A stretch of DNA of 64,000 nucleotides, taken from assembly GCF_018977255.1 (NCBI RefSeq), contig NW_024704743.1:48050001-48114000 (forward strand), read 5' to 3'. The notes beneath the pieces are model-generated. The model was given only the letters and a program-made list of their open reading frames with translations, did not search any database and was not told the DNA's origin. Positions 48,151-48,625 of the stretch are shown here, one piece after another; position 1 is the stretch's first letter, and every line of letters begins with the position of its first letter. The stretch is from Callorhinchus milii. Taxonomy: Eukaryota. A program made the translations under genes and the position numbers.

Positions 48151-48625
48151 AAGAGTCCAAAGATTTGTAGAATGATCTTGTTATGCCTATAAACACAAAA
48201 GAGATGAAGTGAGAAAAATAAATAGAGAGGAAAGGATTTTTAAAGTCAAAGCTTAAACAATATTCAAAATTCGTGTGTAATTAATTATATTATGGCGCTA
48301 ACTATGACATATAAAGACATCGTGAAGTACGTGTTTACTATGCTTAAAAGTATATTAACTATGCTTAAGAGTATCATCAGAACCCTTACGTCTCTGAAGG
48401 CAACAAGGAGGCTCGGTTTGGAAAATACAGAATGAAGCGTTTAAATGGTCCCCAAACAACACTAATCAGTTGACGAAACCAATGTTCAGTAAACCTGGAG
48501 TGCACAGCATCTTGGCGTATTTTGCAAATGGAAAGATTTATTTGTGCTGATCTTTGAATGTACATGTTGCTGCATAACATTCCAGTCGTCGTCTAAACCT
48601 AAACCATGTTCCCTTTGATGTAACG
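48151..48625 (+). pseudogene. Decayed Hox paralogue-group-8 exon 1 (putative HoxA8 pseudogene)
   Basis: Collinear Hox8 motifs: YG at 48291, YHQNPY at 48372-48389 (YQQNPC), LNGPQ at 48441-48455 (LYGAQ/LFGAQ), VQ*-P-EC at 48484-48503 (VQYPDC), QSSS at 48583-48594 and MFPLM* at 48606-48623 (QSSSPSQMFPWMR). Stops and frameshifts throughout. The 5' boundary is approximate. Confidence 0.8.

Follow-up and report, generated by a model that had tools for sequence, protein, structure and literature searches.

The stretch of DNA analyzed here (the window) comprises 64,000 nt of Callorhinchus milii contig NW_024704743.1 (positions 48,050,001 to 48,114,000 of the forward strand), and coordinates are given relative to its first base. 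A six-frame scan identified six homeoboxes, all on the plus strand and assigned to groups 13, 11, 10, 9, 7, and 6, and a DNA profile of these six found no seventh in the window (next best match, E 0.99). Homologue searches with the Hox proteins of the window named Hox-A6, A7, and A10. The gene set is that of a gnathostome HoxA cluster, 13-11-10-9-7-6, without 12 and 8 and with mir-196 between 10 and 9. A preliminary description of this DNA had stated that HoxA lacks a functional group-8 gene, and no intact group-8 gene was present among the six homeobox genes. The following features define the setting.

37212-37285, plus strand: mir-196, between HoxA10 and HoxA9 (Rfam RF00256, 70.6 bits).
43068-44480, plus strand: HoxA9, intact, 5' neighbor of the stretch described below (Hox9_act, PF04617, E 4.6e-67; homeodomain).
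49473-49673, no strand: microsatellite (ATGTATGC)n, 200 nt, TRF score 230, in the would-be intron; the interval is otherwise repeat-poor.
52500-54352, plus strand: HoxA7, intact, 3' neighbor (open reading frames and splice sites; Hox-A7 first of the named homologue matches).
62815-63728, plus strand: HoxA6, intact (exon 1/intron/exon 2, 430/224/260 nt).

The mature form of mir-196 in the window, with ...TTTCATGTTG..., is presumably of the 196a type, versus the mammalian 196b type. There are eight plus-strand 7-mer seed sites for miR-196 (ACTACCT) in the window, all of them just 3' of HoxA11 (21421), HoxA9 (44799, 45363, and 45386), or HoxA7 (54424, 54481, 55375, and 55421). The structure of HoxA6 equals that of the elephant shark gene, for which Table 1 of PMC2746220 gives 430/224/260 nt, and differs from those of skate and horn shark, which have a 202-nt intron. 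Ahead of its usual start, the HoxA13 frame stays open for approximately 40 codons with in-frame ATGs (5799-5925), a possible N-terminal extension. The DNA profile built from the six homeoboxes detected no remnant of a HoxA12 homeobox between HoxA13 and HoxA11 (7250-19200; best E 9.1). The single ambiguous base of the window is an N at 55068.

HoxA9 and HoxA7 are separated by a gap of 8,020 nt (interval 44481-52499). In this group-8 slot, on the plus strand like its neighbors, lies a disabled non-coding stretch with three high-ranking anchors of group-8 type, laid out as follows.

48151-48296, plus strand: proposed start (FV and KHK), unsupported, and YG, present as two residues only.
48337-48374, plus strand: tandem duplication of period 21, frame-preserving; copy 2 reaches into codon 1 of YHQNPY.
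48372-48630, plus strand: recognizable 3' half of a putative HoxA8 pseudogene exon 1, with stops and frameshifts throughout (four-motif chain score 49.6).
48372-48389, plus strand: YHQNPY, matching the presumed group-8 motif YQQNPC; top site of 117,206 non-coding positions.
48441-48503, plus strand: middle motifs LNGPQ and VQ*/EC, of uncertain placement and at chance level when scored alone.
48583-48594, plus strand: QSSS, rank 2 of 117,206, 23 nt upstream of the hexapeptide.
48606-48623, plus strand: decayed hexapeptide MFPLM*, with the Trp codon TGG changed to TTG and a stop at the Arg position; rank 2 of 117,206.
48631-48632, plus strand: GT where a phase-1 donor would be expected, 25 nt past the hexapeptide's first base, in an otherwise poor donor consensus.

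Further motifs are YG at 48291, EGN at 48396, GTT CAG TAA at 48484, and GAG TGC at 48498. One frame contains YG, YHQNPY, EGN, LNGPQ, and the hexapeptide, and another contains VQ* and QSSS; the main frame has 12 stops over 159 codons, leaving no intact reading frame. Every motif quoted in the preliminary description was found where it had been placed, except KHK. The start of the exon had been put near 48151-48174, which was not borne out: FV lies at 48164, KHK falls outside that range at 48191, and start motifs in this region are at chance. The reported lesions of the hexapeptide are as described (ATG TTC CCT TTG ATG TAA at 48606), and the 21-period duplication is real, with 16 of 17 bases identical between 48337-48353 and 48358-48374; it is absent from the TRF listing at score 30. 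The GT has the same 25-nt offset as the HoxA7 donor and is weak evidence because GT occurs at a frequency of 0.06 in the interval. G+C content is slightly higher at 48300-48700 than in the nearest flanks (0.36-0.41 versus 0.26-0.32). Pfam gave no match in a read-through of the stretch. An antisense 64-codon ATG open reading frame (48580-48386, minus strand) and a plus-strand 47-codon frame at 48292 are both probably due to chance.

Hox8 reference sequences were scarce. Three homologue searches (Hox6 and Hox7 exon-1 profiles and the A10 homeodomain core, the last with the best 120 of 978 matches) gave Hox6, Hox7, and Hox10, with no full-length Hox8 among the matches listed, and none of 29 PDB matches was a Hox8. 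Among the best 150 of 22,408 matches of a representative search, two had a Hox8 homeodomain, both of them fused gene models. The sole Hox8 exon-1 reference used was P0227, which carries the final 49 residues encoded by a HoxD8-like exon 1, including V.YPDC, QSSS, and MFPWMR, and which we take to be a bird-like HoxD9-HoxD8 fused gene model; HoxD8 is likewise our assumed paralogue name. The top three Atlas clusters for residues 181-327 of P0227 were Hox-A7, Hox-C6a, and Hox-D8, which does not settle that name. Two entries named "Homeobox B8" (horse), P0086 and P0087, are HoxB7 exon-1 sequences. YQQNPC, HGD, and LYGAQ were assumed to be group-8 motifs, and spacings of 81 and 195 nt were likewise assumed; a full-text literature search on motifs of this type gave no match.

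Each motif was scored by itself over both strands of the non-coding DNA (117,206 positions). YQQNPC ranked first (48372), QSSS and MFPWMR each ranked second (48583 and 48606), and LYGAQ and VQYPDC ranked 46 and 78; among the 8,018 positions of the A9-A7 interval, the hexapeptide ranked first. When the motifs were chained with 45 nt of slack, the four-motif chain scored 49.6 compared with a null of 26.5±2.6, and none of 1,500 shuffles reached that score. The best chain of the four-motif type elsewhere in the non-coding DNA of the window scored 30.9. A two-anchor chain scored 33.8 against 16.5±2.1 (0/1500 shuffles), the chain without YQQNPC was matched by 1 of 1,500 shuffles, and the chain without the hexapeptide was matched by 0/400 in all four settings. 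The YQQNPC-type motif, QSSS, and the hexapeptide are thus above chance, but the LYGAQ/VQYPDC pair is not: scored alone with 20 nt of slack, the pair was equaled by 514 of 1,500 shuffles and is at chance level.

The motifs had been picked after the sequence had been seen, and it must be asked whether short motifs, selected post hoc from A+T-rich intergenic DNA, merely resemble a Hox8 exon by chance. In a free-choice control, the best three of 10-23 tiles from four Hox6/Hox7 exon 1s were combined with the hexapeptide, and 0/208 shuffle runs reached 49.6 (null means 33-39, maximum 46.3); the Hox6/Hox7 proteins themselves scored 27-34 at the target. This correction for hindsight is only a rough one, because the tiles come from other proteins and differ in composition. 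With tool-derived motifs only, chains that included QSSS were matched by 0/400 shuffles in four settings, the three motifs without QSSS were matched by 54, 8, 34, and 9 of 400, and the tool-derived middle motifs fell at sites other than those first proposed. Chance likeness is favored by middle and start motifs that do no better than chance, a spacing that deviates by as much as 38 nt, the undetected homeobox, the blank Pfam result, and the marginal outcome of the unbiased alignment described below (at best 15/300). Against it stand three anchors that rank 1, 2, and 2 of 117,206 within 250 nt, ordered, on the right strand and in the right interval, together with the free-choice control. We consider chance likeness unlikely.

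The order and rough spacing of a Hox8 exon had also been claimed. Of the 24 possible motif orders, the Hox8 order was indeed the best, narrowly: swapping the first two motifs gave 48.3 versus 49.6, a small margin because LYGAQ is fitted about equally well by the similar YYGAN at 48288. The distance from VQ to the hexapeptide departs from the reference, at 122 nt versus 84 nt in the HoxD8-like segment, and that from QSSS to the hexapeptide is 23 versus 21 nt.

For an alignment independent of chosen motifs, a frameshift-aware protein-to-DNA aligner was written that scored with either BLOSUM62 or a neutral-decay codon matrix. From the 49-residue fragment of P0227, only QSSS and the hexapeptide aligned, across a 2-nt shift. 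In five settings of this low-power test, 279, 300, 15, 109, and 131 of 300 dinucleotide shuffles of the interval reached the target score, and the target was the best site of the interval in two of the five. Across the window, it was never the top non-coding match in any of 16 settings (best, third) or with BLOSUM62. The power of such a test was gauged by simulation: at 0.2 substitutions per site, a decayed Hox7 paralogue fragment scored above 20.6 bits in 40 and 52 of 60 runs, compared with 9 of 60 at 0.4. The formal Hox8 alignment that had been proposed as a check, run here with one partial 49-residue reference, is not clearly significant even at its best (15/300 shuffles), and its power was low.

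The surroundings of the hexapeptide bear on which Hox group is represented. Among 15 hexapeptide contexts from nine proteins, with one Hox8 reference, the D8-like context scored best at the site (14.0), followed by Hox6 (10.0) and Hox2 (9.6), whereas Hox7 contexts scored no more than 4.2. The hexapeptide is common to the central Hox groups, and the Hox6 and Hox2 scores leave some room for a reading in which the stretch is a local copy of a different Hox gene (A7, A6, or A9), since decayed, and not of group 8. Such a duplicate is very improbable given the low Hox7 scores and the exon-1 proteins of the window, 0/6 of which rose above the null at the target (14-17 versus means of 19-20). Duplication of A6, A7, A9, A10, A11, or A13 was rejected as a source, the protein scoring below the null and blastn of exon-1 DNA giving no credible match at the target, and there was no second copy of the stretch within the window. 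The assignment to HoxA8 exon 1 in the preliminary description is probably right with respect to slot, strand, hexapeptide context, GT, and the lack of a match to the six other exon 1s; its start and middle motifs are at chance level.

Group assignment of Hox genes usually rests on the homeodomain in exon 2. No homeobox remnant was found in the interval with nhmmer, and 24/24 frameshift-aware tests were negative (best 13/100). A simulated decayed homeobox was detected in 93/100 cases at 0.4 substitutions per site and in 32/100 at 0.6. Because the homeobox went undetected despite the 93/100 detection at 0.4, exon 2 has either been deleted or has decayed by at least 0.6 substitutions per site. 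A KWFQ-like word at 50081-50098 was rejected as a homeobox remnant (score 14, below the null mean); an acceptor-like AG precedes it, approximately 1.45 kb 3' of the hexapeptide (50030-50100). At the other end, a start of the SSYFVN type was sought with six Hox6/Hox7 start motifs, all six of which were at chance in 48050-48260 (p 0.23-0.86); decay may account for the absence of an N-terminal start motif. A promoter remnant (CACGTG and ATTGG, 47852-47863) was likewise discarded, as it was without significant similarity to any of six Hox upstream regions (equaled by 44-235 of 300 shuffles). TATAAA, CACGTG, and ATTGG cluster at 47833-47870, approximately 300 nt upstream of the proposed start, and CACGTG also occurs approximately 140 nt upstream of the HoxA9 and HoxA7 starts. 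Sites for miR-196 in the 3' UTR are, we assume, a feature of Hox8 genes; no 6-mer seed site was present in 48636-52300.

The visibility of exon 1, when the more informative homeobox would have been detectable in 93/100 cases at 0.4 substitutions per site, raises a special case of the remnant being real, in which it would be under selection in a new non-coding role, either as an enhancer or within a transcript (an A9-A7 read-through or a non-coding one). The slightly raised G+C at 48300-48700 fits such a role, and ancient protein fossils are typically exapted (PMC9004415). Plain deletion of exon 2 can explain the same asymmetry between the exons, and the duplication and indels point to little constraint, which makes this role rather improbable.

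The likely reading is that 48372-48630 is a heavily decayed HoxA8 unitary pseudogene of which only the 3' half of exon 1 is recognizable. Judged by its sequence, it would encode no Hox protein, being without a start region, the PBX-binding Trp, and a detectable homeobox. Because neither a homeodomain nor a start motif was recognized, we label it a probable remnant rather than a demonstrated member of group 8. The earlier wording "still readable" overstated a stretch with only half an exon recognizable, as did the statement that the locus allows partial reconstruction; the signal is too scant for ancestral HoxA8 to be reconstructed from the window sequence alone. Early vertebrates underwent two genome duplications that gave four Hox clusters, in which HoxB8, C8, and D8 were kept. 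HoxA8, a body-patterning gene not known from living jawed vertebrates, would be the group-8 paralogue that these duplications left in HoxA; redundant beside HoxB8, C8, and D8, it may have lost its function and decayed in place. The substitutions, stops, small indels, and 21-nt duplication now seen would have accumulated after this loss, and exon 2 would have been deleted or have decayed further. That the remnant is still faintly legible may be due to the very low holocephalan neutral rate and to repeat-poor Hox clusters: no other vertebrate compared has a neutral rate as low as that of C. milii (PMC3964593), and the HoxA clusters of chondrichthyans are conserved and contain few repeats (PMC2746220).

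The HoxD8-like segment of P0227 resembles the remnant in having QSSS and then MFPWMR at similar spacing, with V.YPDC upstream; it is intact and followed by a homeodomain, whereas the remnant is 38 nt longer from VQ to the hexapeptide and is without a homeobox. In place, the nearest relative may be a degenerate group-8 remnant that Kim et al. (2000) reportedly described in the HoxA (HoxM) cluster of the horn shark. If that is right, the locus is the same and the host is an elasmobranch, not a holocephalan, so the remnant may already be known from a shark. The words "pseudogene" and "hoxa8" are absent from the available text of the skate, horn shark, and elephant shark HoxA comparison (PMC2746220). 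The literature searched, outside which lay Kim 2000, Chiu 2002, and Ravi 2009, names no HoxA8 pseudogene, and none is mentioned in the available portions of PMC1845163, PMC9456325, PMC5054437, PMC12952989, PMC9004415, PMC2080641, PMC4686793, or PMC3394115. As C. milii Hox pseudogenes, a review lists only HoxA14 and HoxB14, with no A8 remnant, in the portion available (PMC3707753). Like the remnant, these are holocephalan Hox pseudogenes left in place after duplication; unlike it, they belong to group 14, for which independent losses were inferred from Hox14 remnants (PMC3509897).

The HoxD12 pseudogene of caecilians is another Hox remnant recognized by alignment at its own slot, but its loss is far younger and concerns a different cluster and group (PMC4470032). 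Palaeozoic protein fossils are similar in being old, frameshifted relics of host genes missed by standard BLAST, and C. milii is among the genomes searched for them; those reported are strongly conserved and exapted, unlike the remnant, and no Hox fossil is named in the available text or one supplement (PMC9004415). The remnant is thus probably a new holocephalan record of a kind already known, the in-place Hox pseudogene.

No new mechanism is implied, and the signal is thin. HoxA8 is taken to be missing in reconstructions of the ancestral Hox clusters of jawed vertebrates, and the remnant would be a physical trace of the gene in its slot. Through its lesions, the date and number of HoxA8 losses become testable: lesions common to chimaeras and sharks would mean that the gene was lost before the two lineages diverged, no less than 375 My ago (PMC2746220), whereas differing lesions would point to later, independent losses. 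If it is neutral, the remnant would rank with the oldest pseudogenes that can still be read and would offer a measure of mutation rates in holocephalans.
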